From an uncultured Chloroflexia bacterium (GTDB taxonomy: Bacteria > Chloroflexota > Anaerolineae > Anaerolineales > UBA4823): a stretch of 64,000 bases of DNA. A program made the position numbers and the translations under genes. Under the pieces are notes generated by a model, which made no database searches, was not told the origin of the DNA, and worked only from the letters and a program-made list of their open reading frames with translations. The stretch is taken from NCBI GenBank assembly GCA_963822175.1, contig CAWGGJ010000004.1:107349-171348 (forward strand). Reading direction: 5' to 3'. Position 1 is the first letter of the stretch; each line of letters begins with the position of its first letter. Shown here one piece after another: positions 32,376 to 49,682 of this stretch.

Positions 32376-32376
32376 C

Positions 32377-33603: not shown

Positions 33604-33668
33604 ATTTCACCTGGTATATTGAGTGGAGTACATTAGCTTGATAACTAATAAATCCATGAGTAAGCGTT

Positions 33669-35203
33669 TCATGGAGGGGTGACCTGGTTCCAGATTTGTG
33701 CATACTGGTCATCATATTCAAGCTTCCAGGTTGGGTCTCGTAATAACGAAGACGCAAGTTCAGGCTGCAGATTTTTGTCCAAAAGTATCCTATCCACTCC
33801 ATACTTCTGTAGAAGCTCATTGTAATTTGTGGCATTGTTGATATGAACATAATCCATCCATTGGTCAATGGGGAAAAGCTCAACCCTGGTGTCGACAAAC
33901 ACACCCTGTTCTGGAACTGACCAGATGAGATAGCTACCATAGCCCATTTCATTAAATAAATTCCCCCCGGGGTGAGTCTTCAAATACTCGGATACCGCCA
34001 CAGGTGTGTTGATACTGATCAATTCTCCACCTGGTGTTTTTCGTAAAACCTGCTTCCAGTAGGTGTCGGGTAATGGAAGACGCTCAACAAACCAGGGTTG
34101 TACTAAAATTACAGGGATAATTAATATAATTACCAGGACTAAATTTAATAAATTCTTCTGAGCAATTAATGTCGGTGTTTTTATTGGAAGATCTCGAATA
34201 AGACGAGCCAGGATTGGTGTGGATATAATTCCATACCAGACGACATAACGTTGACCTGACCAAGCTAGCCATAAAAATCCAGCATAAAGCAATATTTCTG
34301 TTATGGTAAGACGATATTTCGAAAAAGCCAAAATGATTATAAAAATGATAATACTTATATAGAAACTTATATTCGCAAGACCTTGCGGGGTCGGTGATTG
34401 CCATTCTTCAATAAGTTGTTGACTGGCGGGATCAGTAAGCAGTTTAAGCGTGTAACTGATAACTCCAGTGAAACGAGGATTAACCAGCACCGCCAGGGTG
34501 GAAAATATGCCGATACCGCCAACCCAGCCAATCTCACGCCACGGTAATGCATCAGAATGTTTAAATAGAAGTCTAAGCCTTCACCCAGGAAAAATCCTCC
34601 GATCAAGATCAAACCAAGAATGTAGCTTCCGTGAACATTGACCCAAAATATCATCATCAATGGACAAATTATTAGCCAACGATGATTAATTACCCCCTCC
34701 GAAAATCTTTTTAAAATAATATATGTCACAATAAAAGGTATCCACGCCCACATTTGTGTACGAACAGGCAAATTATTCGTGATCATTACGCACAGGAATG
34801 CAATCGCCACTGCTGCAATCCGCCAGGAATTGCTCCGGCGTTTGGATTCTGATGTTATAAGCCAGATGGAGATCCCAATTAATACTGTCCTGGTCGTGGT
34901 GATGAGAGCAAGTCCGCCCAAGCGATACAAGATATAAAACAGTAATTCAGCAAGCCAGGTTGCATAATAAAATGGCTGATTTTCTGGCAAGGTCCACGCG
35001 TACATATTCGTGGTGGGTATCGAATGGTTAGAATATATATATTCACCAATCTTCAGGTGCCACCAAAAATCATTGGGTGGAAGAGGAATCAATGATGTAA
35101 AAAAAAGGAAACCCAAAACTATCACTAAAGCCCACAGGATATCAAGGCTTATTCCATATTTACTAGTTGTTTTATTAGTCTGATGTGAATTTTCTAGGGT
35201 CAT
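33669..35203 (-). pseudogene. Family-B membrane protein (paralog B2 of 28456..29958), split by a frameshift at about 34540-34580
   Basis: ORF 34367..35203 is the N-terminal half (PPNDFWWHLKIGEYI, WRIAAVAIAF, FWVNVHGSY). ORF 33669..34490 is the C-terminal half (LVNPRF.., FNEMGYGSYLIWSVPEQGVFVDTRVELFP). Extending the second frame upstream gives ..SDALPWREIGWVGGIGIFSTLAVLVNPRF, which aligns to B1. Confidence 0.75.
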
Positions 35204-35206
35204 AGT

Positions 35207-36442
35207 TTAGTTGAATTCTAAAACCGGTGTAGTATCAACGCTCTTTGCGGCTGAATGCTTCCTTCGGATTAATAAGAACCAGATCAGTAATGCAGGAGCC
35301 ATCCAGATAAACCAGAAATCACTTAGTTTCATATGTAGAACCAGATCTAGGATATTAATTATCAGGAATATACCAACGAAGATGAGTGTGGACCAATGCT
35401 TCCAATCCTGAGTCAACCAGATGGAGGCCAATATTATTGCTGGAATTAAGATGACCTGATCGTAAGTATAGGTATACGGTGCTGTAACTTGAGAAACGAA
35501 TAGTATAAGAGGAATTGCTACTAGCCAGCTCCAAGAATCATGATGCTTATTCCAATAATATAAAAACCATATTCCACCGAAGATAGGGGCGATAAATTGA
35601 AGCCAGAATTTATCAGTACCAAGCCAGAAAAAGCGTAAATACGATCCAATAGTCGGGGTAGCTAACTCAGGGAGATAACCAGTTTGCATCATAACTATAT
35701 ATTGATTGATGATATGCGGGTTAAATACCATCGCAATCAATGTCAATAGGAGAATGGTCAAAGCGAAGCTTACCAGAATCCACCACCTGCGCTTTTGAAT
35801 CACCCAAAACAATAATGCTATCCAGAAAATAAAGATGGATTGGGGCTTGATAGAAACGATCGCTAATGATGCACCTGCTGCCCAGTCATTTTTCTGGAGG
35901 CAGGTGAAATATAAAAAGCCTGTAACTCCAAGCAAGAGCCAGGCAGAAATTTGTCCAACTTCCAGAACAGAGATCGTTGGTGCAAAGAGGATAACCATAA
36001 TCCAAGCTATCCAGCGTTGACCAGGATGACCTTTGTAAAAACGCCAGAGTAATTGTGCAGAAACGACAATAAACGCAATCGATGATAAAAGCCAGACTAA
36101 TCTACTGGTCGGGTAATCAAGGAGACCAAATGGCATCACCATCGCAACTGCCCAGGGAGGGTTTAGCATGATGGAGATCGGATAGGTATTTGATGGATGC
36201 CCACTTTCTTCGATGAGAAGGCTTTCCTTTTTTTGGGCATCATAGGGATTTTCGCCGGTTAGATTTAGCTTGCCCGCAGCCCAATATGGAAAAAAATCAT
36301 CAGTGGCATAATATTGAGGTCTGGTGATGACTGGAGCCAGTCTAGCTAATACCAATAGGCTTATTATCAAAATAATCCATAGAATGATGCGATAAACTCT
36401 TTTGTTGTTTTTTATGAACATATACTTATTAGGTACTACCAA
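35207..36442 (-). CDS. DUF2029/GT87-like GT-C membrane glycosyltransferase (paralog A5)
   Basis: 411 aa. YATDDFFPYWAAGKLNLTGENPYD, IVSIKPQSIFI, TAPYTYTYDQVILIPA. Overlaps the upstream gene by 14 nt (alternative ATG at 36421). Confidence 0.65.
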   Translation of the reverse strand: MVVPNKYMFIKNNKRVYRIILWIILIISLLVLARLAPVITRPQYYATDDFFPYWAAGKLNLTGENPYDAQKKESLLIEESGHPSNTYPISIMLNPPWAVAMVMPFGLLDYPTSRLVWLLSSIAFIVVSAQLLWRFYKGHPGQRWIAWIMVILFAPTISVLEVGQISAWLLLGVTGFLYFTCLQKNDWAAGASLAIVSIKPQSIFIFWIALLFWVIQKRRWWILVSFALTILLLTLIAMVFNPHIINQYIVMMQTGYLPELATPTIGSYLRFFWLGTDKFWLQFIAPIFGGIWFLYYWNKHHDSWSWLVAIPLILFVSQVTAPYTYTYDQVILIPAIILASIWLTQDWKHWSTLIFVGIFLIINILDLVLHMKLSDFWFIWMAPALLIWFLLIRRKHSAAKSVDTTPVLEFN

Positions 36443-37643
36443 GAGCTGTTAAATTATTTCTAACTTGATTTTGTAAGAATAAATGCTTATAAGAGAGAAG
36501 ATACCAGAACAATAAGAAAACTGGATACCACCAGAACCAGTTTTGGTTTACTCGTAGAAAAGCGACCGATAAGTTGACAAACCAATAGGTGCTAAAAATA
36601 AGTCCCTTTTTTATTGTCCAATGAGTAAAATCGAATAGGGCGGTAATGTGGATAATGCAACACAGACTAACTATTGAGTCCAATGTCCAGGCATATGGTG
36701 TCGTGGCAATGGATACTAAAATAAACAGGGGAAAACTTGTCGTCCATTGAAATGATTTATGGAATTTGTTCCAATATATCAGGAACCAGCTAAGACCAAT
36801 AACAAGCGGAAAAAATTGTAAATAAAACTTCTCTGGTCCAAGAATTGAACGCAAAAAAGTACCTAATGTTGAAGTCATCCAAATTTGAACCGGATAAGAC
36901 TTGACCATAACCAGATACTGAGAAACCAGGTGTGGATTGAAAATCATTGATATCATCAACGACACTGTCAATCCAATAAACAAGCCAATTAAGATGGTGT
37001 ACTTAAGGTGGCTGATCGACCAGAATAGGATCGCAATAATTAATATATATAGTAGCTGCGGCTTGATCATTATCAAACTAGCAGAGATTCCTGCCCAAAA
37101 ATAAGATTTCTTATTTTGAAAATATAGAAATCCGACACTACCTAGAAGAATTAAAACAGTTGCCTGACCAGATTTGAGTGCATGCAAAACAGGAGCAAAG
37201 GAAATTGCTGCAATCAATGATATCCACTCATTGCTTTTATTCCCATAATAAATTCTCCAAAGCAGGATTGCGCACAAGCAAATGATGATGAGTTGGATGA
37301 TGAAACATATAAACCTGCTAACGGGGTAGCTAAATACACCCAATAACATTGCATATGCTAACGTCCAAGGGGGATTTAACATCATGAGTGCATCACTTCC
37401 AGTCCACCCTGCAGATTGTTCGATTGTCTGCATTTGGAAAGGATCATATGGATTTCCTCCGCTGAGGTTTATCCTACCCGATGCCCAATATTCAATAAAA
37501 TCATCCTTTGGAAAAATAGTTGTTCTTGAATAGATAGTCCATAAAATGGAAAAAAGAATAGCTATAATAATTAGCAGGAATGGATTTTTTAATAATCTTC
37601 CATAAGATTTGAACCATTCACTCACTCCAGTTTTTAAGGCCAT
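36429..37643 (-). CDS. DUF2029/GT87-like GT-C membrane glycosyltransferase (paralog A6)
   Basis: 404 aa. FPKDDFIEYWASGRINLSGGNPYD, LIMIKPQLLYI, TTPYAWTLDSIV. Confidence 0.65.
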   Translation of the reverse strand: MALKTGVSEWFKSYGRLLKNPFLLIIIAILFSILWTIYSRTTIFPKDDFIEYWASGRINLSGGNPYDPFQMQTIEQSAGWTGSDALMMLNPPWTLAYAMLLGVFSYPVSRFICFIIQLIIICLCAILLWRIYYGNKSNEWISLIAAISFAPVLHALKSGQATVLILLGSVGFLYFQNKKSYFWAGISASLIMIKPQLLYILIIAILFWSISHLKYTILIGLFIGLTVSLMISMIFNPHLVSQYLVMVKSYPVQIWMTSTLGTFLRSILGPEKFYLQFFPLVIGLSWFLIYWNKFHKSFQWTTSFPLFILVSIATTPYAWTLDSIVSLCCIIHITALFDFTHWTIKKGLIFSTYWFVNLSVAFLRVNQNWFWWYPVFLLFWYLLSYKHLFLQNQVRNNLTALGST

Positions 37644-37649
37644 TAAAGA

Positions 37650-38348
37650 TCACCTAGAATCGAAAAAGCGGCATCGAAGTAAAGTGTAAATTGCTTCATA
37701 CCCATCGACCCAGGATATTTTCTTGCCTGCTTGAACCGTCCTTGGATGATAGGAAATTGGTACTTCCATGATGTGATAGCCTTTCCTTAGAAATTTTGCA
37801 GTAATTTCTGGTTCAAAATCAAAGCGGACACATCGTAATCGGATGCCTATAAATGTTTCTCGGTAAAACATCTTATAAGCAGTTTCCATATCGGTGAGAT
37901 GACTTCCGAAAAGGAAATTTGTTAGGAAGGTTAAAAAACGATTTGCAAGTCGTGAAGTTCTTTGTAATTCTACATTCGAATCTAGAAACCTTGACCCATA
38001 TACGATCTTTGTTTCACTTTTAAGTAATGGGGAGAGTAGCTTGGGATAATCAGTGGGATCCAATTCAAGGTCAGCATCCTGAATGGTGATGATATCTCCA
38101 CACGATAATGAAATACCCAGACGTACTGCTGCACCTTTACCCAAATTTATTGGTGAATGGTAGGATATCAAATCTGGGTACTTTATTCTGAGATTTTGTA
38201 TGACTTCACCAGTTCGATCCGATGATCCATCGTTTGAGATAATAATTTCTTTTTCAATAGTGCCAAAATCAACGGAATACACACGGTCAACGATCGCTTC
38301 CAGTGATTCTTCTTCGTTATAGACCGGAATAATTATGCTGAGCTTCAT
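37650..38348 (-). CDS. GT2-family polyprenyl-phosphate glycosyltransferase (Dpm1/Ppm1/GtrB/ArnC-like), soluble form
   Basis: 232 aa. LSIIIPVYNEEESL, ISNDGSSDRT, D-x-D as IQDADLE. No C-terminal TM helices. Confidence 0.8.
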   Translation of the reverse strand: MKLSIIIPVYNEEESLEAIVDRVYSVDFGTIEKEIIISNDGSSDRTGEVIQNLRIKYPDLISYHSPINLGKGAAVRLGISLSCGDIITIQDADLELDPTDYPKLLSPLLKSETKIVYGSRFLDSNVELQRTSRLANRFLTFLTNFLFGSHLTDMETAYKMFYRETFIGIRLRCVRFDFEPEITAKFLRKGYHIMEVPISYHPRTVQAGKKISWVDGYEAIYTLLRCRFFDSR

Positions 38349-38375
38349 CGTCTCCTCAATAAAACAATGTTTACT

Positions 38376-39554
38376 TTAAGGTACCCATGTATTTAATACA
38401 TACATACCCAATAAAAAAGACATCCCTGCCGCGCTTAAAGCGATGATAAGAAGTCTCATCCAAGGTTTTTCAAATATCCCAGCTAAACCGATAAAAATTG
38501 GAAAAGCGAGAAGTAAATGACGGGGCAACCCCATATATGGATGAATTGGTCCTGTATAATAGCTAAAACTGATCAAGGTGATGAGAGCGCAATAAATGCG
38601 ATAACTCATGCGCATTTTCCTCCACGATATGTATAACAAAATCAGGAAGAAAAACCCAGATATGATATTTACCCAAATATCTAAATCAGGGTCTGTAATC
38701 AACTTCATTATTGACAAATACATTGCCTGCCAAGGCCATAAAAACTGTTGAATCTGGACTACCTGTGTTGCACTTGGTGATATTAAAAAAGAATAAATAA
38801 ATTGCTGAAAATCGCCTAACTTAGCTTGCAAGTCGAATAAGAAAATTGCTCTAAAAATTAGCCATATCCCATATCCCATCGGAATTAAAATGAGAGAGAG
38901 CCAATTCTTCCAATGGCTTAGGATTGATTTTTGATTATGGTTCTCATTCTCCCACAATTCCCAGGCAACTGGTAGAAGTAAAAATATACCTTGCTGGCGG
39001 GTCAGGACTGCCAATCCACCCATCAGAGAAGATAGCCACCACGATTTTTTACGAGCAAAATAGAGACACAGAACTGCAAATAAAATGAATAACGCCTCTG
39101 GATATGGAGCAAATAGAACAAATGCAGGAGGTGCCAATACCAACAAAATTGTAGCAAAGAATGCATCATTGGGCTGGAGATCAAGGAGGGCTAATTTATA
39201 GAAGAAAAAAAACAGGACTATGCATGCCAGTGAGCTGATGATTAGTAAGCTAAATGTTGGTGATATTCCGACCCGTGCAAGTGGAGTGGCTAACCAAGGA
39301 TATAAAGGATGAAATTGTGAAGTTCCATCAGTAGCTGAGTAACCTTGAGTGACAATTCGTTGATACCATTCTGCATCCCAACGCAACCATGGCGATAAAA
39401 ATGAACGCTCCAACCAAGGAAATATTGGCCCAAATGGCGGAAATAGAGGGATACTCATTTCTATCGGTGTCATGGGTTTTAGTGAAGATACAATACCAGC
39501 AAAGGTACTGGTTAAAATGCGAAGAAGAATCCAAAGTATGAGTAAGTTAATCAT
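38376..39554 (-). CDS. PIG-V-like (GT76-type) membrane mannosyltransferase-family protein
   Basis: 392 aa, polytopic. The first-loop signature WLRWDAEWYQRIVTQGY....QFHPLYPW matches the W-D-x-x-W-Y..GY...FFPLYP pattern of bacterial PIG-V homologs. The call is from memory. Confidence 0.6.
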   Translation of the reverse strand: MINLLILWILLRILTSTFAGIVSSLKPMTPIEMSIPLFPPFGPIFPWLERSFLSPWLRWDAEWYQRIVTQGYSATDGTSQFHPLYPWLATPLARVGISPTFSLLIISSLACIVLFFFFYKLALLDLQPNDAFFATILLVLAPPAFVLFAPYPEALFILFAVLCLYFARKKSWWLSSLMGGLAVLTRQQGIFLLLPVAWELWENENHNQKSILSHWKNWLSLILIPMGYGIWLIFRAIFLFDLQAKLGDFQQFIYSFLISPSATQVVQIQQFLWPWQAMYLSIMKLITDPDLDIWVNIISGFFFLILLYISWRKMRMSYRIYCALITLISFSYYTGPIHPYMGLPRHLLLAFPIFIGLAGIFEKPWMRLLIIALSAAGMSFLLGMYVLNTWVP

Positions 39555-39566
39555 CGTAAAGTTTAC

Positions 39567-41078
39567 TCATTCATTTGGAGTGAGTATTATTACCTCTGGC
39601 AAAATTTCCATCTGATAATTCTCTCTAAGTGCTTCAGCTAGGGGTGGAACCCAACAACATGCTTTATTAATCGTGTCGCCTCCGATTACCACCAAAGGAA
39701 AGTCCTGCTGGTTTATTCGTTCAGAAAAATCGGATGGATCCCATAAACCTGCCTGGTATAACTGACCATACTCGAATGGTTGGTAATAAATGTCCTGACC
39801 GGAGAGAACAACCATATCTAAATAATCATCAGACAAAACAATACCCTCTCTCGTTGATGCTTTAATCTGTTGAAACAACCTATCATAAATCGGAAGGTTT
39901 TCCATGCGACTGGTGATAACCGTTTGAGTAATCGGAATCGATCCAATTAACACCCAAATGAGCTGGATCATTATTAATCCGGAAATCACCCACCTGGTTG
40001 GTTTATTTTGATCTATGATCATCTTTAATCCAATTGAAAACCAGATAGAACATACCGCCATCAGCTCAAGAAAGTAATTGATGTCTGAACCAACTTTTCC
40101 AACAGTTATGGCAGTGATAAGTGCACCCAATGAGTACGGACATAAACCAAACAACAAAAAAGGATCAAATTTGTCATGGTCAGGGTAGGTCTGTTTTCTA
40201 ATTAAACTTTCTCGAATAATAAGTATTATGACTGCTGCACTGCCGACCAGGATGACCGGCCAAATTACGAATAATTGTTTCAACATCATCATAGTTCTTG
40301 AAAAATCATATATATTAATATTTGCAACCACAATATTGGTAAAAAAGCCACCATTGGTTAGTGCATTAATCATTCCAAAAATCAGCAGAGTTGAAAAACC
40401 CATAATTATTAAATAAACAATTGCTCGACGACGGTTCAGGTGCCAAAGCCAAACAAATCCAGCCAATGGACCTGCAAGGATATATGTCTGCCGAGTATAG
40501 GCAGAAGCTAAAAAACATATACATGCCAAACATATCCATCCAAGTGCATCTCTTCTTACAAACAATATGAACAGCCCAAGCAGGCTAAATGCCAATGCCA
40601 TCATATCGACCCGTGCCAGTGATGACCAGGTCATGACGTAAGGATTGCCCAAGAATATGATTGAAGCTGTGGCACCAAGAAGTTGATTATTAGTCAAACG
40701 GTAGCTGAATACACCGATTAAAGCTGAGCAAATTAAAGAAAAAAATAATGAAATTATCCGTCCGGTTTGAAATAGTGGGATTTTTGTGACCGAATTAATT
40801 GAAGCAACCAGCAGGGTATACAGCGGTGGATAGTTTGCCACTACATATGGTTCAATATTGAAGTCTGATTTATAAATAGTTTCATGTTGCATAATCCGTC
40901 GTGCCTGATCCATCAGGGGGGCTTCGCCATAATCCATGCCATATCGAAAACGAATTATGTTAAAAGTTGTCCAAGTAAACAGGATTAAAATTATCAATAT
41001 ATATATCTGGTAGAATGATTTTTCCAACCTGGGAAGCAATGCGTTTGATGATTTTTTATCCACATAAGCATTATACAT
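39567..41078 (-). CDS. ArnT/PMT-like (GT39/GT83-type) GT-C membrane glycosyltransferase; first gene of the minus-strand operon
   Basis: 503 aa with about 12 TM and a C-terminal soluble domain. The first loop YGMDYGEAPLMDQARRI...NYPPLY is typical of ArnT-like enzymes. Confidence 0.6.
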   Translation of the reverse strand: MYNAYVDKKSSNALLPRLEKSFYQIYILIILILFTWTTFNIIRFRYGMDYGEAPLMDQARRIMQHETIYKSDFNIEPYVVANYPPLYTLLVASINSVTKIPLFQTGRIISLFFSLICSALIGVFSYRLTNNQLLGATASIIFLGNPYVMTWSSLARVDMMALAFSLLGLFILFVRRDALGWICLACICFLASAYTRQTYILAGPLAGFVWLWHLNRRRAIVYLIIMGFSTLLIFGMINALTNGGFFTNIVVANINIYDFSRTMMMLKQLFVIWPVILVGSAAVIILIIRESLIRKQTYPDHDKFDPFLLFGLCPYSLGALITAITVGKVGSDINYFLELMAVCSIWFSIGLKMIIDQNKPTRWVISGLIMIQLIWVLIGSIPITQTVITSRMENLPIYDRLFQQIKASTREGIVLSDDYLDMVVLSGQDIYYQPFEYGQLYQAGLWDPSDFSERINQQDFPLVVIGGDTINKACCWVPPLAEALRENYQMEILPEVIILTPNE

Positions 41079-41200: not shown

Positions 41201-42274
41201 ATGAATTTGCCAGATAAATCCATGACCGAAGAAGATCTTTCGACCTGGGAGAAGCTTAAACTGGATTGTCGAAATGAATTGGAGCAAGCACAAAAAGAAT
41301 TAAAAGAAATTCTCATGTTGATTGAGCAAAGTCAGCTTGAAACATCCAGGCTACAGCAAAGAAATGCATCAATTTCTGCCCACCTACAACAGATTCAATC
41401 ACAAATTGATTCGATACCTAAGGCTGATATTCGCATGGCTTACGATGCTGCTTTGGACGCCCAGCAAAGATTGTTTGTAATGCGGGGGCAAATTGAAAAA
41501 TTACAAAGTGACCATTCGCATATTGAACATTATCTTTCAATTTTGGAGCGCGTCAATGAGGCCTTAGAAATTGGCCAGATTGATATGGGTGGATCACCGA
41601 AGGATCAAACCACGCTCGCAAAGACGGTGGAAATGATCATTCAGGCTCAGGAAGCGGAAAGAGGACGCCTTGCTCGCCAGATGCATGATGGACCTGCACA
41701 AGCGCTTTCAAATTTCATTTTACAAACAGAAATTGCGATGCGGCTTTTTGAAATTGATCAGGTAAAGGCGAAAGAAGAACTTGCAGGTATTAAGTCATCT
41801 GCATCATCAACTTTCCAAAAAGTAAGAGATTTTATTTTTGATTTACGTCCAATGATGCTAGATGATTTGGGTTTGGTGCCCACATTAACTCGTTATATCG
41901 AGACATTTAAAGAACAATTGGGAATTGAGGTTCGATTTATATCAACTGGAATGGAGCAGCGATTTGAACCGTATAAAGAAGTGATGGTTTTTCGCGCGAT
42001 CCAGGAACTACTTGCAAACATTGCTCGGCATAGCCAGGCTACACAGGTAATTATCCAAATGGATACTTCATCAACTGCGTTCCGAGTGAGTATCGAGGAT
42101 AATGGGAAGGGTTTTGATCCTGATAAAATGCACGAAAAGGGTGGAATGGGGCTAAAAGTCATCCGTGACCGGGTTCAAATGCTTGGGGGAACTGTGGAGA
42201 TAAACAGCTCAATCGGTCATGGTGCACACATTTTAATTCAAATACCAACAACGAGTGCGGATGCCTTTGCATGA
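41201..42274 (+). CDS. Cytoplasmic (no TM) HisKA_3-type sensor histidine kinase, DegS-like, with an N-terminal coiled coil
   Basis: 357 aa. H-box EAERGRLARQMHDGPAQALSN. HATPase N/G boxes IQELLANIARHS, DNGKGFD, GGMGLKVIRDRV. No hydrophobic segment and no cognate NarL-type regulator adjacent. Confidence 0.8.
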   Translation: MNLPDKSMTEEDLSTWEKLKLDCRNELEQAQKELKEILMLIEQSQLETSRLQQRNASISAHLQQIQSQIDSIPKADIRMAYDAALDAQQRLFVMRGQIEKLQSDHSHIEHYLSILERVNEALEIGQIDMGGSPKDQTTLAKTVEMIIQAQEAERGRLARQMHDGPAQALSNFILQTEIAMRLFEIDQVKAKEELAGIKSSASSTFQKVRDFIFDLRPMMLDDLGLVPTLTRYIETFKEQLGIEVRFISTGMEQRFEPYKEVMVFRAIQELLANIARHSQATQVIIQMDTSSTAFRVSIEDNGKGFDPDKMHEKGGMGLKVIRDRVQMLGGTVEINSSIGHGAHILIQIPTTSADAFA

Positions 42275-42331
42275 TCGTTAGGTAACCTATTGCATTTTCA
42301 TATTGATTTTTTTCCGAGTATTGCATATAAT
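42266..42331 (+). promoter_or_regulatory. flp-1 promoter (TTGATT, 17 nt, TATAAT) with conserved upstream box TTTGCATGATCGTTAGG
   Basis: -35 at 42303-42308 and -10 at 42326-42331. The box at 42266-42282 lies exactly 20 nt upstream of the -35. The box overlaps the stop codon of the kinase gene. Confidence 0.6.
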
Positions 42332-42386
42332 TATGCACACTTCGGTTTACTACCGAAGAATCCATAATGGAAAGGAGGTGAACGCG

Positions 42387-42539
42387 ATGTTGTTCTCACC
42401 TAAGGAAAAGGGTCAGGGCATGGTTGAATATGCGTTAATTATTGTATTGATCGCAATTGTTGTCATTGTTATACTCACCGTACTCGGCACCCAAATCTCA
42501 ACAGTGTTTAGCCAGATTTCTTCAGCACTCAGAACCTAA
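42387..42539 (+). CDS. flp: Flp/Fap-family type IVb (Tad) prepilin, copy 1
   Basis: 50 aa: MLFSPKEKGQG|MVEYALIIVLIAIVVIVILTVLGTQISTVFSQISSALRT. Has the G-x-x-x-x-EY processing motif and a hydrophobic helix. SD is AAAGGAGGTGA. The track ORF starts further upstream. Confidence 0.85.
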   Translation: MLFSPKEKGQGMVEYALIIVLIAIVVIVILTVLGTQISTVFSQISSALRT

Positions 42540-42560
42540 ATATAATATTTTCACAAATTA

Positions 42561-42582
42561 GGACCCGGTGAAAGCTGGGTCC
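42561..42582 (+). terminator. Hairpin after flp-1 (weak T tract)
   Basis: GGACCCGG-tgaaag-CTGGGTCC. Shares the GGACCCG/CGGGTCC core with the hairpins after flp-2 and flp-3. Confidence 0.45.
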
Positions 42583-42786
42583 TAATGATTTAATTCTGTT
42601 GATTTTCAGAAAAATAATTATAGAAAGTGTTGTGATATGTATTAAAAAATGCATGGAATAAAATTCCTGGCTGGAATGGTTGAGCATCAAGTGGGGGAAT
42701 CATGGGAGATCGGAATATGAAAGTTTATATATATTCATTCCAATTCGCACATTATATTTCATTGAACCATTGGATATACAGTTTAG

Positions 42787-42851
42787 TTTGCATAATTGTT
42801 AGGGATTATTAAGCGTTTCTATATTGATTTTTCCTTTTTTTTTTATATAAT
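42787..42851 (+). promoter_or_regulatory. flp-2 promoter (TTGATT, 16 nt, TATAAT) with upstream box TTTGCATAATTGTTAGG
   Basis: -35 at 42824-42829 and -10 at 42846-42851. The box at 42787-42803 is again 20 nt upstream of the -35. Confidence 0.6.
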
Positions 42852-42907
42852 GTATCAAACATTTGGTATTTTATTTCTAAAATCATAATGGAAAGGAGGT
42901 GAATCCA

Positions 42908-43060
42908 ATGTTGTTCTCGCCTAAGGAAAAGGGTCAGGGTATGGTCGAATATGCATTGATTATTGTTTTGATAGCGATTGTTGTCATTATTATTCTTACC
43001 GTCCTCGGAACCCAGATTTCAACAGTCTTCAGCCAGATTTCTTCAGCACTTCGTACCTAA
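42908..43060 (+). CDS. flp: Flp-family prepilin, copy 2 (absent from the supplied ORF track because it is under 60 aa)
   Basis: The ATG at 42908, preceded by GGAAAGGAGGTGAATCCA, gives MLFSPKEKGQGMVEYALIIVLIAIVVIIILTVLGTQISTVFSQISSALRT, ending at TAA 43058-43060. It differs from copy 1 by one residue. Confidence 0.85.
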   Translation: MLFSPKEKGQGMVEYALIIVLIAIVVIIILTVLGTQISTVFSQISSALRT

Positions 43061-43081
43061 AGACAATACCTACTATGACGT

Positions 43082-43111
43082 GGACCCGGCCAATGCCGGG
43101 TCCAATTTTTT
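43082..43111 (+). terminator. Rho-independent terminator after flp-2
   Basis: GGACCCGGC-caat-GCCGGGTCC (9 bp) followed by AATTTTTT. Confidence 0.75.
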
Positions 43112-43304
43112 AATCAAGACCATTATTCGAATGATTGGTGGGAAATGCAATTGGATCAGCACCAGAATTGGCTTGTTGGTATGCTTAACCGGCAATTGGA
43201 TTAATATGTAAAATACATGAATCGACGACCACATACCAAGGAAAAATTATTTTATTTATCAGCTACATGTGGAATTACAATTCAAAGTGATAAATACAGT
43301 TGGG

Positions 43305-43370
43305 TTTGCATATTTGTTAGGGGCTGTTAAGCAAAAATATATTGATTAATTTATCAATATTTCATATAAT
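43305..43370 (+). promoter_or_regulatory. flp-3 promoter (TTGATT, 17 nt, TATAAT) with upstream box TTTGCATATTTGTTAGG
   Basis: -35 at 43342-43347 and -10 at 43365-43370. The box at 43305-43321 is 20 nt upstream of the -35. Confidence 0.6.
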
Positions 43371-43426
43371 GATGCAGAAATTAGATAAATCAATTGATGA
43401 TACAAAATGGAAAGGAGGTGAATCCA

Positions 43427-43579
43427 ATGTTGTTCTCGCCGAAGGAAAAGGGTCAGGGTATGGTCGAATATGCATTGATTATTGTTTTGATAGCGATTGT
43501 TGTCATTATTATTCTAACCGTTCTCGGAACCCAGATTTCGACAGTCTTTAGCCAGATATCGTCTGCTCTGGCGACCTAG
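43427..43579 (+). CDS. flp: Flp-family prepilin, copy 3
   Basis: MLFSPKEKGQGMVEYALIIVLIAIVVIIILTVLGTQISTVFSQISSALAT. Same SD as copy 2. The last two residues are AT rather than RT. Confidence 0.85.
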   Translation: MLFSPKEKGQGMVEYALIIVLIAIVVIIILTVLGTQISTVFSQISSALAT

Positions 43580-43600
43580 TTGACCAGTTTTTCATATATT

Positions 43601-43631
43601 GGACCCGTGAATTTCCGGGTCCATTTTTTTT
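43601..43631 (+). terminator. Rho-independent terminator after flp-3
   Basis: GGACCCG-tgaatttc-CGGGTCC followed by ATTTTTTTT. Confidence 0.75.
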
Positions 43632-43795
43632 GATTAATATGGTATAAATCTTGCAGCCTATGGGTGGTAAAGTTTAATGATTTCAGGTAGACTTATATGA
43701 ATTGGGGACGAGGTCCCTTGAACTTGACTTTTGACATAATGGTCGTATGATTAATCGATTGGCATTTCTGAAAAACCTGAGCATGGGAGGTTGAT

Positions 43796-44965
43796 ATGCG
43801 CCGTGGAAGAATTTTTTTTCTGTTAGCATTAATCATTGTGGTTGGACTAGCTTTAGTATATGTAGTCTACAGTAGAGGATTGTTGTTTCCGAACCCATCC
43901 GGATCCGGCGAAGAAATAACTGCTCCAGTTGCTACAGCAACACCGATTGCCACAACTAAGGTGGTAGTTAATACCCAACGGATACAGCGCGGTGAAACCA
44001 TAACTGCAGATAAGCTGGATATGCAAGAGTATCAGGCAGATCTAGTTTTACCGATCATGTATACGGACATGAATCTGGTCGTTGGGAAGATGGCTCGGTA
44101 CTCAATGGATCCATATACCGTGATGACTTCTGCAGTGGTCACGGATTCACCAGACACCGAACAGGGATCTGATGATGCATTGTTTATATCCCCGGGTATG
44201 GTTGCTGTTTCAATTCCAATAACAAGGTTATCTAGTGTATCTTATGCCCCACAAAGGGGAGATCATGTAAATGTAATTGTCACTATGTTATTTGTTGACC
44301 TGGATCCTTCCTGGCAGACAATTCTTCCGAATTGGACTGGTAATGTGATTGCTCCAGCTGGCGGTGGAATAGCAGAAGGCGCTGGTGCCCTACCCTCGGA
44401 AGGCCTTACTACATTATTTGCCCAGCCATTCCGTGGGGTTTCCGAGCAAGGACGTCCCGAAAATGATCCACTCCTGGACCAAACTTTTTATATCCTGCCA
44501 TCCGAGGCTCAACGTCCACGCCTGGTGAGTCAAACTTTGATTCAAAATGTGATTGTGCTTCAGATGGGAAACTTCTTGACCCCAGCTGAAAAAGCAGCGT
44601 TGGAGGCGACACAACCTGCTGCGACTGCCACACCTGAACCTGGTTCAGAACAAGCACAGCAAGAACAAGGTGCTGCAACACCCACCCCAAAACCAGCTCC
44701 TCCCGATGTGATTACACTAATTGTAAATCCACAAGATGCAGTTACATTAAATTATCTGATTTATGGTGGCGCACAATTAACCCTTGTTTTACGGAATCCT
44801 CGAGATGTTGAGGTTCCGGCAACCGAGGCTGTAACTCTTTCATATCTGCTTGATCAGTACAATATACCAATTCCAGTCAAGTTACCGTATGGTTTTCAAC
44901 CCGCAGTACAGGAATTGATCTCACCATCGCTCCCAAATGATCTAACTCCGACACCAGAGCAATAA
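43796..44965 (+). CDS. cpaB: Flp pilus assembly protein CpaB/RcpC-like (N-terminal TM, SAF-like domain, Pro/Thr/Ala-rich insert)
   Basis: 389 aa. N-terminus MRRGRIFFLLALIIVVGLALVYVV. The region ...QRIQRGETITADKL.. is SAF-like. Position is first in the tad assembly operon. Confidence 0.7.
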   Translation: MRRGRIFFLLALIIVVGLALVYVVYSRGLLFPNPSGSGEEITAPVATATPIATTKVVVNTQRIQRGETITADKLDMQEYQADLVLPIMYTDMNLVVGKMARYSMDPYTVMTSAVVTDSPDTEQGSDDALFISPGMVAVSIPITRLSSVSYAPQRGDHVNVIVTMLFVDLDPSWQTILPNWTGNVIAPAGGGIAEGAGALPSEGLTTLFAQPFRGVSEQGRPENDPLLDQTFYILPSEAQRPRLVSQTLIQNVIVLQMGNFLTPAEKAALEATQPAATATPEPGSEQAQQEQGAATPTPKPAPPDVITLIVNPQDAVTLNYLIYGGAQLTLVLRNPRDVEVPATEAVTLSYLLDQYNIPIPVKLPYGFQPAVQELISPSLPNDLTPTPEQ

Positions 44966-44991
44966 CAAGAATTCATCATAGGAGTTAATGC

Positions 44992-46245
44992 ATGGTAGAT
45001 TCTGAGAAAATTCGGGTAGTAATAGTTGATGATATTGCTGAAACGCGTGAGAATATCAGGAAGTTATTACAATTCGAACCTGATGTAGAAGTTGTAGGGA
45101 TTGCAAGGACAGGAAGAGAAGCTATTGATATAGCCAAAGATGTCAAGCCAGATGTCCTTTTGATGGATATTAATATGCCTGACATGGATGGTATTGCTGC
45201 AACCGAAATCATCCAAAAAACGGTTCCGTTTACTCAAATAGTGATCCTGTCTATTCAAAATGACCCCAACTACATGCGGCGTGCATTAATCGCAGGTGCT
45301 CGTGATTTTCTTACAAAACCTCCAACTATTGATGAATTGAACTCAGCGATAAGGCGGGCGGGTAGTAGGGCTCGTGAAGAGCGAGCTAAGGTTCCTCAGG
45401 TAAGTGGGGTTCAAACAGCACGGTCCGCTGGGGTACATACAAGTGGAACCTCCGGAGCAGGTGGTCGGGTAATAACGTTTTATAGCCCAAAAGGAGGTTC
45501 TGGTTGTACAACTCTGGCAACAAATCTGGCTGTTTGCCTGAACAACGAGAACACTTCAGTTGTAATTGTGGATGGGAATTTACAGTTTGGAGATGTAGCA
45601 GTATTTCTAAATGAGCAAGGGAAATTTAGTATCTTAGATTTAACACCTCGTGCTGATGAATTGGATCCGGATATTATTGATAACGTAACCATCAAACACG
45701 CACAATCTGGTATAAAAATCCTGGCAGCACCGATGAAACCTGAACAGGCTGATTCCGTCACGGCGGAGCAGTTTTCAAAAGTAATTAGATATCTACACGA
45801 GATTTTTTCCTACGTGATAATTGATACAGCTTCCTTACTGACGAATATCACAGCAACTGCTATTGATAATAGCGATCTCCTTATATTGCTTACCACTCAA
45901 GATATACCATCTATAAAGAATTCGCGATTATTCTTGGATGAGATCGATGCTTTAGGTTTTGACCGGAAGAGAATCATCTTTGTGATGAATAAATATGATA
46001 AGCGTATCGGGATTACCCCAGAGAAAGTTAGTGAAAACCTTAAGCAGGAGATAACTTCTGTAATTCCGTTTGAAGAGAGGGTGATCGTGTCTGTTAATCG
46101 TGGTATTCCTTTTTTACTGGTCGATAAATCTCGGCCATTGTCACGTTCGATTCTATCTCTTGCTGAAACAGTAAGACAGCGAATTTCTGAGCTGGAATCT
46201 CAAACTGATCTTCAAGTACCTGGTAAAGTTAGCGGTAAAAAATAA
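44992..46245 (+). CDS. tadZ: TadZ/CpaE-like ParA/MinD-family ATPase fused to an apparently canonical response-regulator receiver domain
   Basis: The receiver has the acidic pair (VIVDD), phospho-acceptor context (VLLMDINMPDMDG), ILS and TKP. After a linker comes the deviant Walker A, FYSPKGGSGCTTLATNLA. Confidence 0.8.
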   Translation: MVDSEKIRVVIVDDIAETRENIRKLLQFEPDVEVVGIARTGREAIDIAKDVKPDVLLMDINMPDMDGIAATEIIQKTVPFTQIVILSIQNDPNYMRRALIAGARDFLTKPPTIDELNSAIRRAGSRAREERAKVPQVSGVQTARSAGVHTSGTSGAGGRVITFYSPKGGSGCTTLATNLAVCLNNENTSVVIVDGNLQFGDVAVFLNEQGKFSILDLTPRADELDPDIIDNVTIKHAQSGIKILAAPMKPEQADSVTAEQFSKVIRYLHEIFSYVIIDTASLLTNITATAIDNSDLLILLTTQDIPSIKNSRLFLDEIDALGFDRKRIIFVMNKYDKRIGITPEKVSENLKQEITSVIPFEERVIVSVNRGIPFLLVDKSRPLSRSILSLAETVRQRISELESQTDLQVPGKVSGKK

Positions 46246-46274
46246 GTGTGATATATTGAATTGGAGTAATCAAA

Positions 46275-47681
46275 ATGTCTCTCCTAAAACGAATTGAACA
46301 AGGCAAAACCAGTCCACCAACATCCGGGCAGACTTCTGGCGGACTCGGACAGCCAAGTCTGATAAATACGCAAGCACGCAGAGTTGTTCCGCCTGGTGTG
46401 AGCGGGCAAAAAGATACCTATACCGATCTGAAGACCAGAGTTCAAAATCGGTTGTTATCAGAGCTAGATCCATCAATGGATATTACCCGGATAACAGAAG
46501 TACGAAGTACTATCCAGGATCTTTTTGAACAAGTGCTCGCTGAAGAAAACATCGTTCTATCACGTCCTGAAAGACAACGTCTGTTTGAGCAAATCAGTGC
46601 AGAAATACTGGGATTTGGTCCTCTGCAACCACTTCTTGAAGATGAGACCATTACAGAAGTGATGGTCAATGGGGCAAAAAATATCTATATTGAGCGTGCG
46701 GGGAAGATCATCAGGATTCCGGTAGCTTTTGAAAGTGATGAACATGTTATGCGTATTATTGATCGTATCGTGGCTCCCCTTGGCCGGCGTATTGATGAAT
46801 CCAGTCCTTATGTAGATGCACGATTACCTGATGGCTCCCGCGTTAATGCCGTTATTCCACCCATTTCCTTAGTTGGCCCAGTACTAACAGTACGAAAGTT
46901 TGCTAAAAATCCCATCACTCTGGAGCAATTGATACAGTATGGGACAATCACCCCAGAGGCACTTCAATTCCTGAAAGCGTGTGTAGAATCCAGGCTAAAT
47001 ATGATCATTTCTGGTGGGACTGGCTCTGGAAAAACCACGCTGCTGAATATTCTTTCCCAATTTATTCCAGCAGATGAACGTATAGTCACGGTAGAAAACG
47101 CAGCTGAGTTGCAACTTAGGCAAGAACATGTCGTTACATTGGAGTCACGGCCGCCAAATATTGAAGGTCGTGGAGAGGTAACGATACGTCAGTTGGTCAT
47201 CAACTGCTTGCGTATGCGACCTGATAGAATCATTGTTGGTGAAATCCGAGACGAAGCTGCATTGGACATGTTACAAGCGATGAATACTGGACATGATGGT
47301 TCAATGACAACAGCCCACTCAAATAGTCCAAGAGATACACTCGCACGTTTAGAGACAATGGTGATGATGGCAGGAATGGAATTGCCGGTTCGTGCAATTC
47401 GGGAACAAGTTTCATCTGCTATTGACTTGATTATTCACCAGGAACGAATGAGAGACGGTACCCGCAAGGTTGTTAATATCACCGAAGTCTCAGGAATGGA
47501 AGGTGATGTTATAACAATGACTGATATTTTTGTCTTCGAACAATCAGGATTCGAAGGTGGAAAAATTATTGGTAGATTGCGTCCGACAGGCTTACGTCCG
47601 AAGTTTATGGAAAAGATTGAGTCTTCAGGTATTCATCTGCCTCCATCGATATTTGGCATTGGAGAACGCAGGCGTTATTAG
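46275..47681 (+). CDS. cpaF: CpaF/TadA secretion ATPase (type II/IV secretion NTPase family)
   Basis: Walker A ISGGTGSGKTTLLN, Walker B DRIIVGEIRD, His box TGHDGSMTTAHSN. Confidence 0.9.
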   Translation: MSLLKRIEQGKTSPPTSGQTSGGLGQPSLINTQARRVVPPGVSGQKDTYTDLKTRVQNRLLSELDPSMDITRITEVRSTIQDLFEQVLAEENIVLSRPERQRLFEQISAEILGFGPLQPLLEDETITEVMVNGAKNIYIERAGKIIRIPVAFESDEHVMRIIDRIVAPLGRRIDESSPYVDARLPDGSRVNAVIPPISLVGPVLTVRKFAKNPITLEQLIQYGTITPEALQFLKACVESRLNMIISGGTGSGKTTLLNILSQFIPADERIVTVENAAELQLRQEHVVTLESRPPNIEGRGEVTIRQLVINCLRMRPDRIIVGEIRDEAALDMLQAMNTGHDGSMTTAHSNSPRDTLARLETMVMMAGMELPVRAIREQVSSAIDLIIHQERMRDGTRKVVNITEVSGMEGDVITMTDIFVFEQSGFEGGKIIGRLRPTGLRPKFMEKIESSGIHLPPSIFGIGERRRY

Positions 47682-47711
47682 ACCCTTTCTTTGGTGTTGC
47701 TGAGGTAGATC

Positions 47712-48707
47712 ATGGGTCCTACAACAATTCTCATCATTGGTGGTGTCATTGCATTAATCCTATTGGTAATCGGGTTGATCATTACAGCCACTGAAGAGCG
47801 TTCTTTAGTTGACAAACGCCTTGAATATCTGGAAGAACAAGGGGTCCCTGTAGTTAATAAAAAGGCTGTGCTCGGTGAATGGGTTGGAAAACAAGCCACC
47901 CAATATACCTGGGGGCAATCACTCACTCGGTCGTTGGCACGTGCCGATATAAAGATGAAAACTGGGGAATTTATTCTCCTGGTTGCTGTGTTAACAATTA
48001 TTGGTGGAATAATCGGCTGGTTTCTTGGGGGTGGTTCAAGTCTTGGTGAAGGGCGATCGACTGGAGAATTACTAGCGAATGTCCCAGGGATTTTAATCGG
48101 TGCTGCAGTAGGTTTTCTTGCACCTACAATATACTTGAGACGTCAACAAGGAAAGAGGTTAATAAAATTTGATAACCAACTTGCTGACATGCTGAGTTTA
48201 ATGGTCAATGGTCTTCGTGCAGGTTATTCTATTATGCAAGCCATGGAAGCAGTCAGTAAAGAACTGCCTCCACCAATTTCTGATGAGTTTCGCCGTGTTG
48301 TTCAAGAAATGCAATTGGGAATTCCAATGAATGTTGCATTGGAAAATCTGACACGGCGCATCCCAAGTAGAGATCTCGATCTATTGGTCACTGCAATTAC
48401 TGTACAACGAGAGGTTGGAGGTAATTTGGCAGAAATTCTGGATACCATCTCGCATACGATCCGTGAGCGTGTCCGGGTTAAAGGTGAAATCCGTATCCTG
48501 ACGACTCAGGTAATGACATCAGGCAGGTTTCTGGCGATAATGCCTCTTGCAGTTATCATTATCATGTACTTTATTAATCGACCATATATGATGCGTTTCT
48601 TTAACCCTGCTACCCGTATGTTTGGGATTCCTGCATTAATAATTGGTGCAAGTATGATCTTAATTGGATATTACTTAATGACGAAAATTGCTACGATAGA
48701 GGTTTAG
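47712..48707 (+). CDS. tadB: TadB-like type II secretion system F-family inner-membrane platform protein
   Basis: 331 aa. T2SS-F domain (LADMLSLMVNGLRAGYSIMQAME...) flanked by TM helices. Confidence 0.8.
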   Translation: MGPTTILIIGGVIALILLVIGLIITATEERSLVDKRLEYLEEQGVPVVNKKAVLGEWVGKQATQYTWGQSLTRSLARADIKMKTGEFILLVAVLTIIGGIIGWFLGGGSSLGEGRSTGELLANVPGILIGAAVGFLAPTIYLRRQQGKRLIKFDNQLADMLSLMVNGLRAGYSIMQAMEAVSKELPPPISDEFRRVVQEMQLGIPMNVALENLTRRIPSRDLDLLVTAITVQREVGGNLAEILDTISHTIRERVRVKGEIRILTTQVMTSGRFLAIMPLAVIIIMYFINRPYMMRFFNPATRMFGIPALIIGASMILIGYYLMTKIATIEV

Positions 48708-48731
48708 TGTATCTATCATAGGAGATAGAGA

Positions 48732-49682
48732 ATGGTACCATTACCCCTAATTATTATTGGTGTGGTGTTGATTTTTGGAGCGATTATCCTGGTAATTGTA
48801 GGAATTCGTTCGCCTCAAGGGATTGACCCATTAGAGGACAGGCTGGCAGAATATGCCGCTCGAGGAGAAACTGTATCCCTCGAGGAAATAGAGTTATCAC
48901 AACCATTCTCACAAAGGATTATTGTACCTATAGCCAAACGCATGGGTGAATTTGTGATGCGTTTTACCCCTCAAAATGCGATTACATCCATGTCTAAGAA
49001 ACTAGAACTAGCCGGAAATCCTGGCAACATGGATCCAGCGGTAATATTTGCATTACGGTTCCTTGGTATCCCCCTTGGAATGATATTTATCATTCTCGAT
49101 CGAGTTGCAGCACCCGGCAGTTTTATTGATGGAAAAGGTTTATTTCTTGCTCTTCCTGCTGCTATTCTTGGCTTTTATTTACCCGATCTATATTTACAAT
49201 CAAAAATAGATAAGCGTCAAAAAGAAATTCGAAAAGCAATGCCAGATGGATTAGACTTATTAACAATCTGCGTAGAAGCAGGACTCGGATTTGATGCTGC
49301 TATGTCTAAACTATATGAAAAGTGGGACAATGAACTTGGGCGTGCATTTGGACGGGTTGTGCGTGAAATTCAATTAGGTAAATTACGCCGCGAGGCATTA
49401 AGAGATATGGCTGATCGGCTTGGTGTTAGCGAAATGTCCAGTTTTGTTGCCGCGGTCATCCAGAGCGAGCAGTTAGGTGTGAGTATGGCGCACGTTCTAC
49501 GCATCCAAGCAGATCAGATGCGTATTCGGAGGCGGCAAATGGCAGAAGAAGAAGCTCACAAAGCACCAATCAAAATGCTGCTACCAATGGCACTCTTCAT
49601 CTTTCCAGCTTTATGTATTGTCCTCATGACCCCAGCTTTCTTAATCCTGATTGAGCAGGGAGCTGGCCCACTCGGTGGATGA
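48732..49682 (+). CDS. tadC: TadC-like type II secretion system F-family platform protein
   Basis: 316 aa. PDGLDLLTICVEAGLGFDAAM... is a T2SS-F domain. Paired with tadB. Confidence 0.8.
   Translation: MVPLPLIIIGVVLIFGAIILVIVGIRSPQGIDPLEDRLAEYAARGETVSLEEIELSQPFSQRIIVPIAKRMGEFVMRFTPQNAITSMSKKLELAGNPGNMDPAVIFALRFLGIPLGMIFIILDRVAAPGSFIDGKGLFLALPAAILGFYLPDLYLQSKIDKRQKEIRKAMPDGLDLLTICVEAGLGFDAAMSKLYEKWDNELGRAFGRVVREIQLGKLRREALRDMADRLGVSEMSSFVAAVIQSEQLGVSMAHVLRIQADQMRIRRRQMAEEEAHKAPIKMLLPMALFIFPALCIVLMTPAFLILIEQGAGPLGG

Follow-up and report, generated by a model that had tools for sequence, protein, structure and literature searches.

In the 64,000-nt stretch analyzed here (the window), which comes from contig CAWGGJ010000004.1 of an uncultured Chloroflexia bacterium of the order Anaerolineales, three tandem genes for Flp-type pilins, flp-1 to flp-3, are each preceded by a conserved composite element that stands at a fixed distance from a near-consensus promoter. 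This cis-element of about 30 bp, YTTGCATAATTGTWAGG-N4-ATTAAGCG, with its first part (the box) 20 bp from the −35, is defined through its conservation in related loci, where it is confined to flp promoters and decayed flp cassettes. Judged from sequence comparison, the box is very probably a functional protein site, and we think it fairly probable that the three genes are independent pilin transcription units co-regulated through the composite as an operator, with class-I-like activation as the favored mode. Tad/Flp pili drive adhesion and surface behavior, and their regulation in Chloroflexota is essentially undescribed; we found no paper on flp promoters or flp regulation in this phylum. The motif, the design in which each copy has its own promoter, operator and terminator, and the leader hairpin of one copy are newly described here, while the kind of system is familiar and its regulatory logic of promoter, upstream operator and terminator is conventional.

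A composite element phased to the flp promoters

Each flp gene forms the center of a cassette (Table 1). The first-pass annotation had described three 153-nt genes for 50-residue prepilins with one or two differences between them, each preceded by the box TTTGCAT-N4-GTTAGG, a 20-nt gap, a TTGATT/TATAAT promoter and a Shine-Dalgarno sequence, and followed by a GGACCCG/CGGGTCC hairpin. We recover all of these: the gene coordinates agree, with the protein differences being V28I (flp-1 versus flp-2 and flp-3) and R49A (flp-3); the box matches exactly at 42266, 42787 and 43305; the gap to TTGATT is 20 nt in all three cassettes, with −35/−10 spacers of 17, 16 and 17 nt; and the Shine-Dalgarno block and the hairpin accompany each gene, the T-tract after flp-1 being poor. 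The first box indeed lies across the stop codon of the upstream histidine kinase gene (TGA, 42272–42274). The core promoters agree with the consensus at 10 of 12 positions and have spacers of 16–17 nt. No other exact copy of the box sequence TTTGCATNNNNGTTAGG exists in the window, and allowing two mismatches yields a single site, at 1835, which is the level expected by chance.

When the three cassettes are aligned, the box, −35, −10, Shine-Dalgarno sequence, coding region and terminator stems emerge as conserved islands, the other non-coding DNA having diverged: 14 of 17 box columns are invariant, as against 20% of the remaining non-coding ones (binomial P ~6e-8). Short contigs from four unrelated metagenomes match the unique flanks of the cassettes with 0–4 mismatches, and the three-cassette arrangement is thus not an obvious assembly artifact; the DNA contigs from these four metagenomes held no informative copy-number joints.

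For comparison, we used 51 related loci fetched via alignment of CpaB homologs, 12 from species-representative genomes and 39 from metagenomes, in which CpaB is 69–98% identical to that of the window and which carry 57 flp genes at one to three copies per locus. The best CpaB relatives belong to metagenome-assembled genomes of uncultured Anaerolineae/Chloroflexota from wetlands and sediments, and several of the short-read contigs end just 5' of the flp nearest to cpaB, as expected for a repeat. When the upstream regions are right-aligned, the box is seen in nearly every one, with its gap to the −35 exactly 20 nt in about 40 of the 49 full-length regions; the −35/−10 spacer is 17 nt, TATAAT is exact in 46 of the 49, and the ATG follows the −10 at a variable distance of 46–58 nt. 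These regions fall into two old paralog types, namely kinase-proximal ones, in which the box overlaps the last codons of the kinase, and distal ones, which carry a decayed relic of the kinase 3' end. Between the two types the box is 83%, the second element ATTAAGCG 82% and the −35 block 76% identical, as against 34–40% for the linker, flanks and spacers, which is about random for such A+T-rich DNA. The information profile likewise peaks at TTGCA, TGTWAGG, ATTAAGCG, TATTGAT and TATAAT. The first-pass annotation had raised the prospect that the box might be no more conserved than the duplicated DNA around it; across the 51 loci it is conserved far better than these surroundings, and therefore simple hitch-hiking with the duplication fails as an explanation.

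The box proved to be larger than originally described: its positions stood, and its central ‘N4’ did not survive as a spacer. In 35 non-redundant sequences these four positions are A (33), A (28), T (23) and T (34), which makes the box a contiguous 16–17-mer, YTTGCATAATTGTWAGG. It is an imperfect dyad of 14–16 bp with invariant T0, T1, C3, A4, G10 and A13, and its invariant positions are themselves dyad-symmetric (TTnCA-N4-TGnnA; consensus TTRCA-N4-TGYWA). The palindrome is perfect in certain relatives, as TTGCA-N4-TGCAA (L025, L031, L032) or TTACA-N4-TGTAA (L006, L007, L012). The symmetry together with these perfect palindromes points to a dimeric DNA-binding protein.

The second conserved element, ATTAAGCG, was overlooked in the first pass. 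It lies 4 nt 3' of the box, is followed by an A/T tract, and occurs in flp-2, flp-3 and almost all relatives. It is lost in flp-1, whose ATTAAGCG-less sequence is supported by independent metagenome contigs and which is the outlier of the whole data set, scoring 16.4 bits on a position weight matrix (PWM) of the composite as against 22–47 bits for the other sites from which the matrix was built. The flp-1 promoter region (42264–42295) holds two direct CCT(T/A)TTGCAT copies 22 nt apart, the second of which replaces ATTAAGCG. In the third copy of another locus (L039) the box has decayed and the core promoter is intact. If transcription is assumed to start 7 nt past the −10, the composite would span about −72 to −45, with the dyad centered near −65 and ATTAAGCG at about −52 to −45; the dyad center is about 32 bp (three helical turns) from the center of the −35, and the dyad ends exactly 20 bp from the −35.

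The element is also specific. A 31-nt PWM of the composite was run over both strands of 365 kb with a threshold of at least 12 bits, and all matches lay about 120 nt 5' of an flp ATG, at one frameshifted flp (L010), or in five decayed cassettes; they include sites outside the training set of the matrix, at 24–45 bits. With the box and its 20-nt phasing conserved and the motif found only at flp promoters and decayed flp cassettes, the earlier suggestion of a phased upstream regulator site gains considerably in plausibility. The relic cassettes (L002:5608, L003:5620, L005:5614, L007:5527 and L037:1824) still score 24–38 PWM bits, having kept the box, ATTAAG(T/C)G and traces of the −35 region. 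They lack a −10, a leader, an flp gene and a terminator, and their boxes stand about 245 nt 5' of the sigma-54-like element discussed below. Their survival may reflect slow decay or a second role of the box. A perfect dyad, a lost second element and gene-less relic boxes thus form a natural allelic series.

Probable transcription units, leader hairpins and the history of the cassettes

In the mechanism that we propose, each cassette would act as an independent, short pilin transcription unit of about 250 nt, driven by a primary-sigma-type promoter (TTGATT-16/17-TATAAT) and closed by an intrinsic terminator 21 nt past the stop codon, which would uncouple pilin supply from the separately controlled assembly genes. 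A GACCCGG...CCGGGTC hairpin indeed stands about 21 nt past the stop of almost every flp, with compensatory variants among 50 relatives. The last flp copies have clean U5–8 tracts, and the tracts of internal copies are interrupted (AUUGUGUUUA-like), which suggests partial read-through. Weak but direct evidence from RNA comes from a relative (L041), where a 243-nt metatranscriptome contig lies on 1287–1523 with one mismatch and a depth of 2.3. It starts 6–12 nt past the −10 (1270–1275) and ends inside the terminator hairpin (~1505–1528), with nothing 5' or 3' of it. It thus matches the predicted monocistronic unit, and its bounds at the predicted start and terminator agree with the independent pilin units envisaged in the first pass. 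The metatranscriptome contigs found for the window cover only the conserved coding parts of the three flp genes, have zero depth over the promoters and inter-cassette spacers, and give no 5' ends; RNA searches on two further loci (L040 and L029) returned nothing outside the coding regions. More broadly, many metatranscriptomes from soil, sediment and freshwater (runs X25–X46) contain flp coding sequences of this clade, and a word depth of up to ~640 in one sediment run indicates that the flp mRNAs of this uncultured lineage are abundant in situ; they are abundant in sediment and soil metatranscriptomes alike.

The leader hairpin that had been noted in flp-1 alone is part of a wider pattern, in which kinase-proximal copies carry one and distal copies are mostly without. 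The kinase-proximal leaders have a predicted start at AAC and then a hairpin of 5–8 bp at +3, i.e. 2–4 nt from the predicted 5' end, with stem variants such as CTTTGG/CCAAAG, CTCTGG/CCAGAG and CTGGAG/CTCCAG next to the CTTCGG/CCGAAG of the window. In an alignment of 27 leaders, 87.6% of cells are paired as against at most 63% with slid partners; seven double-change (compensatory) cells occur at two positions, and none of 500 shuffles reaches the observed score. The mean stability is −5.35 kcal/mol for proximal copies (−9.6 in the window) versus −2.3 for distal ones. Sequence conservation lends moderate support to the hairpin, and from its position near the predicted 5' end we infer a 5'-terminal mRNA stabilizer. 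Stem-loops of this kind are found in the leaders of Escherichia coli ompA and Bacillus subtilis aprE. The flp hairpins resemble these in being short, in lying 2–4 nt from the predicted 5' end and in belonging to the very highly expressed mRNA of a surface or secreted protein; they differ in that their function is deduced from position and conservation and in that they are restricted to the kinase-proximal paralog. Elsewhere, in L040 (2033–2425), a second flp without a promoter of its own begins 81 nt past the first, and between the two stands the same hairpin extended to a perfect 12 bp, which fits a role at the RNA level. In L001 (5383–5902) the second flp, likewise promoterless, comes after a terminator and reads on as an open reading frame (ORF) of 90 residues past the end of the other copies and could be a pseudogene or a long-read error.

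As for their origin, the relic of the kinase 3' end upstream of the distal boxes places the start of the duplicated unit within the kinase gene, and tandem duplication of such a unit of about 520 bp, reaching from the kinase 3' end to the flp terminator, would have given rise to the three cassettes. In the window, the relics upstream of boxes 2 and 3 (42743–42768 and 43262–43287) correspond to a ...HILIQIP segment. In the distal copies of relatives, the relic takes the form of a moderately conserved CACATnATTAATTnCAT block about 42 bp 5' of the box, which could be a second operator or simply be decaying slowly. Proximal and distal copies of one genome share 91% identity in the coding region and 60% in the promoter module; for cassettes of the same type in different genomes the corresponding values are 86% and 65%; and the C-terminal tails of Flp are the same within genomes and different between them. 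Together these values indicate that the duplication is old. The coding regions thus look to have been homogenized within genomes, most simply by gene conversion, whereas the regulatory regions appear to evolve separately except for their functional islands and to keep paralog-specific promoter signatures. This makes the locus a clean example of concerted evolution of paralogous coding regions alongside regulatory regions that remain distinct. The varying copy number (1–3) and the relic cassettes speak for ongoing birth and death of the units.

The proposed factor at the box and competing explanations

We propose that the composite of YTTGCATAATTGTWAGG and ATTAAGCG would be the operator through which a single sequence-specific factor, probably a dimer, co-regulates all the pilin copies, most likely by class-I-like activation. 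This mode is favored because the site lies wholly 5' of the −35 and is phased to a fixed helix face, exact to the base pair. The reference case for class I activator-dependent promoters is CRP at lac, centered at −61.5. Like it, the flp dyad is wholly 5' of the −35 on a fixed helix face, and the A/T-rich stretch that separates box and −35 offers a possible seat for the alpha C-terminal domain of RNA polymerase, as at class I promoters; unlike it, the flp dyad centers at about −65 from the predicted start, the core promoter is not weak, and the motif is not the CRP/FNR consensus. Taken by itself, the proposition that the factor is an activator falls slightly short of even in our estimate. The copies would further be non-equivalent in output through the proximal stem-loop with its presumed stabilizing effect, the weaker internal U-tracts and the missing second element of flp-1.

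Several observations weigh against this interpretation. The dyad is imperfect in most copies, and the asymmetry of G14, G15 and ATTAAGCG allows a direct repeat of the OmpR/PhoB kind, or two proteins, instead; read as a direct repeat, the site is TGTTAG-N5-ATTAAG, the repeat period being 11 bp, as is usual for regulators of the OmpR/PhoB type. Core promoters as near to consensus as these are found more often under repression than under activation, and the boxes kept without an flp gene hint at a role beyond the flp promoter alone. Five Pfam batches run on the window ORFs of at least 120 residues, minus a few short or overlapping ones judged spurious, yielded no DNA-binding response regulator, Crp/Fnr-type protein or enhancer-binding protein, and apart from Fur no obvious candidate for the cognate protein of the box is encoded in the window. 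The flp starts used here are predicted, and the sole informative RNA contig is of low depth (2.3) and from a relative. As for the leader hairpin, RNAalifold returned no consensus structure on the leaders, and few independent events account for the compensatory changes.

The best surviving alternative is in effect a sub-hypothesis on the identity of the factor: an unlinked response regulator of the NarL/LuxR type, the partner of the adjacent DegS-like HisKA_3 kinase, would recognize the box and bind it in a 7-2-7-like inverted arrangement. The usual partners of HisKA_3 kinases are NarL-family regulators, and these bind dyads of like half-site spacing. A kinase ortholog (68–83% identical) stands immediately 5' of the first flp in 27 related loci, with its stop codon usually inside the first box. 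The PprAB system beside the tad locus of Pseudomonas aeruginosa provides a precedent (PMC6821963). On the other side, neither the window nor the flanks of the loci encode such a regulator; the sole receiver nearby, that of the CpaE/TadZ-like ATPase, would be an equally good target of phosphorylation; and the box is unlike the reported PprB site GGCTAATAC, of which none is present there. We therefore rate this identity as unlikely, if still the strongest of the alternatives.

Somewhat less likely still, in our judgment, is that the composite is the operator of a dimeric repressor which, perhaps together with CACATnATTAATTnCAT or neighboring cassettes, silences strong constitutive promoters until a signal arrives. 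Such promoters, at 10 of 12 consensus positions with 16–17-nt spacers, are probably active unaided, the distal copies do have a moderately conserved second upstream block, and upstream sites at Caulobacter pilA are known both to induce and to repress (PMC11264516). Yet the site lies wholly 5' of the −35 and overlaps neither the core promoter nor the start site, its phasing to the −35, strict to the single base, is more in keeping with contact to RNA polymerase than with occlusion, and the upstream block is possibly a mere relic of kinase coding sequence.

It is very unlikely that the box serves an enhancer-binding protein as upstream activating sequence at the sigma-54-like promoter before cpaB, its association with flp being secondary. 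The conserved TGGYYYAAAWCTTGCAGC past the last flp terminator in almost all loci, and the persistence of boxes in flp-less cassettes about 245 nt 5' of the sigma-54-like element, would suit such a role; but intact cassettes place the box at least about 335 nt away from that element, on the far side of a terminator, the invariant spacing (20 nt) is to a sigma-70-type −35 and not to the sigma-54-like element, neither rpoN nor an enhancer-binding protein was found by Pfam in the 64-kb window, and sigma-54 is present in only some Chloroflexi (PMC3162934). Still less credible is an upstream tandem promoter with the right half of the box (TTGTTA) as its −35 and a −10, TATATT, overlapping the downstream −35. 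A scan did list TTGTTA-18-TATATT at 42796 and 43314, but we rejected it: the putative −10 is not conserved, reading CTATTG, GTATTG, ACATTG or CCATTG in relatives and CATATT in flp-1, and TTGCAT, AGG and ATTAAGCG would be left unexplained. Finally, that the box is functionless, its similarity left over from recent duplication or from gene conversion, is scarcely tenable: the cassettes are duplicates with coding regions that are being homogenized, yet the flanks fall to 34–40% where the box and ATTAAGCG keep 82–83% across genomes whose CpaB is only 69–83% identical, conversion tracts would preserve contiguous DNA rather than islands, and the spacing is held to the base pair in loci that are not near-clonal.

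Comparison with known sites gave no assignment. A sigma-54 promoter at the flp box (TGG-N8-TTGC) was rejected, as the triplet 11 nt 5' of TTGCA is TGC, ATC or TAC and never TGG. The nearest approach to a CtrA box (TTAA-N7-TTAAC) is TTAG-N6-TTAAG, with the wrong spacing. Against the consensi for CtrA, PprB, RcsAB, ArcA, PhoP, FNR and PrfA there is superficial likeness at non-conserved positions, and we claim none of them. With the element, its allelic series and the conserved kinase neighbor in hand, the regulator should be findable by DNA affinity purification sequencing (DAP-seq) or DNA pull-down, even in an uncultured lineage.

The surrounding locus and other Flp systems

There are instructive parallels to the flp cassettes in other Flp systems. 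In Caulobacter crescentus, pilA has multiple upstream CtrA-binding sites (PMC11264516), and there, as proposed here, a Flp-type (type IVc) major pilin is transcribed alone from a promoter with upstream transcription factor sites and tuned separately from the cpa assembly genes. The CtrA sites (TTAA-N7-TTAAC) differ from our box, CtrA is alphaproteobacterial, and Caulobacter has a single pilin gene where the window has tandem cassettes. In P. aeruginosa, the PprAB two-component system beside the tad locus controls flp (PMC6821963); in common with it, a histidine kinase gene adjoins the tad/flp locus and the pilin promoter would be a dedicated regulatory target. However, PprB is encoded in the locus and has its own site (GGCTAATAC), whereas the kinase of the window is an orphan, with the only nearby receiver on CpaE/TadZ. 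Several flp paralogs at or near one tad locus are also known from Haemophilus ducreyi, where flp1-flp2-flp3 lie in one operon with the tad genes (PMC3201912), and from Bdellovibrio, where flp1-3 are differentially regulated (PMC5430801). Unlike in H. ducreyi, each of the near-identical copies in the window has its own promoter, putative operator and terminator, and in comparison with these multi-copy loci the coding regions here are homogenized within the genome and the regulatory regions distinct.

Table 1. Features of the flp locus (window coordinates; all on the + strand).
Position	Feature	Details
41201–42274	DegS-like histidine kinase, soluble (HisKA_3 + HATPase_c)	Pfam; last codons and stop inside box 1
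42266–42282	Box 1, TTTGCATGATCGTTAGG	Dyad core TTGCA-N4-CGTTA; exact search, PWM
42287–42294	Second-element position in flp-1, degenerate (CTATTGCA)	Lies within CCTATTGCAT, an incomplete repeat of the left half of the box
42303–42331	flp-1 promoter, TTGATT-17-TATAAT	Predicted start ~42338; conserved in relatives
42340–42358	Leader hairpin, CTTCGG-TTTACTA-CCGAAG	5'-proximal, flp-1 only, ~−9.6 kcal/mol
42369–42382	Shine-Dalgarno block, GGAAAGGAGGTGAA	Repeated at 42890–42903 and 43409–43422; precedes each ATG
42387–42539	flp-1	153 nt, 50-residue Flp prepilin, G/MVEYAL processing motif
42557–42586	flp-1 terminator hairpin	Interrupted T-tract; terminator scan
42743–42768	Relic of kinase 3' coding end (TTCGCACATTATATTTCATTGAACCA)	Weaker relic at 43262–43287
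42787–42815	Box 2, TTTGCATAATTGTTAGG, 4-nt linker and second element ATTAAGCG (42808–42815)	PWM 45.8 bits
42824–42851	flp-2 promoter, TTGATT-16-TATAAT	Predicted start ~42858
42908–43060	flp-2	153 nt, 50-residue Flp prepilin
43081–43104	flp-2 terminator	10-bp stem, then ATTTTTT; terminator scan
43305–43333	Box 3, TTTGCATATTTGTTAGG, linker and second element GTTAAGCA (43326–43333)	Second element 6/8 match; PWM 36.0 bits
43342–43370	flp-3 promoter, TTGATT-17-TATAAT	Predicted start ~43377
43427–43579	flp-3	153 nt, 50-residue Flp prepilin
43600–43631	flp-3 terminator	Hairpin 43600–43623, T8 tract; strongest of the three
43640–43754	Control region of the assembly operon	Highly conserved; between flp-3 terminator and cpaB
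43796–49682	Assembly genes rcpC/cpaB, REC-cpaE/tadZ, cpaF, tadB, tadC	Pfam

All three pilin products match Flp_Fap (PF04964) with E-values of 3e-12 to 4e-12, scoring 46 bits where the cut-off is 32.2. All window copies and all 57 flp genes of the relatives carry the prepilin-peptidase motif, G/XXXXEY ahead of a hydrophobic helix (KGQG/MVEYALIIVLIAIVVI). Among the ORFs scanned in the window, no A24 prepilin peptidase (TadV/CpaA, Peptidase_A24) was found; it may be encoded elsewhere on the 178-kb (178.7 kb) contig. The regulators that the Pfam scan did detect in the window are Fur, a primary sigma factor and REC-CpaE only, the remainder being metabolic or envelope genes. An Rfam scan of 42000–44000 with E up to 1 gave nothing other than a chance small RNA match (19.6 bits against a gathering score of 37).

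The CpaE/TadZ-like ATPase (44992–46245) carries a canonical receiver domain (Response_reg, E 6e-27), the only one in the window that could serve as a phosphorylation target of the adjacent orphan kinase. One can imagine a ‘gene-dosage rheostat’, in which this DegS-like kinase would control an unlinked regulator at the box and coordinate pilin supply with assembly via the CpaE/TadZ receiver, while gene conversion would keep the copies identical and copy-specific leaders, terminators and operators would vary the output. We offer this as a speculative and rather improbable scheme; if true, it would be new for Tad pili, and at work in an Anaerolineae clade of wetlands and sediments that is widespread and transcriptionally active.

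The assembly operon has a control region of its own, which opens with a sigma-54-like TGG-N8-TTGCA element (43640–43655), TGGTATAAATCTTGCA in the window and TGGYYYAAAWCTTGCAGC in nearly all related loci. Farther 3' follow a conserved GGGYGGYAA and TAGACTTAG, then a GGGG-N5-7-CCCC hairpin with compensatory changes, and at 43724–43751 a sigma-70-like promoter, TTGACT-16-TATGAT, the spacer of which (CTTGACTTTTGACATAATGGTCGTATGATTAA) is also invariant. The assembly operon may accordingly be under dual or complex control.

Directly 5' of the kinase gene, on the minus strand (31140–41078), lie genes for four GT87-type membrane glycosyltransferases, other membrane proteins without a family match and one GT2 glycosyltransferase; the GT2 and one unassigned membrane protein are syntenic in relatives. 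The last 3–6 residues of Flp, often rich in Ser, Thr, Ala or Gly, are shared by the copies of one genome and differ from genome to genome. The glycosyltransferases and these variable C-termini may point to glycosylation of the pilin.

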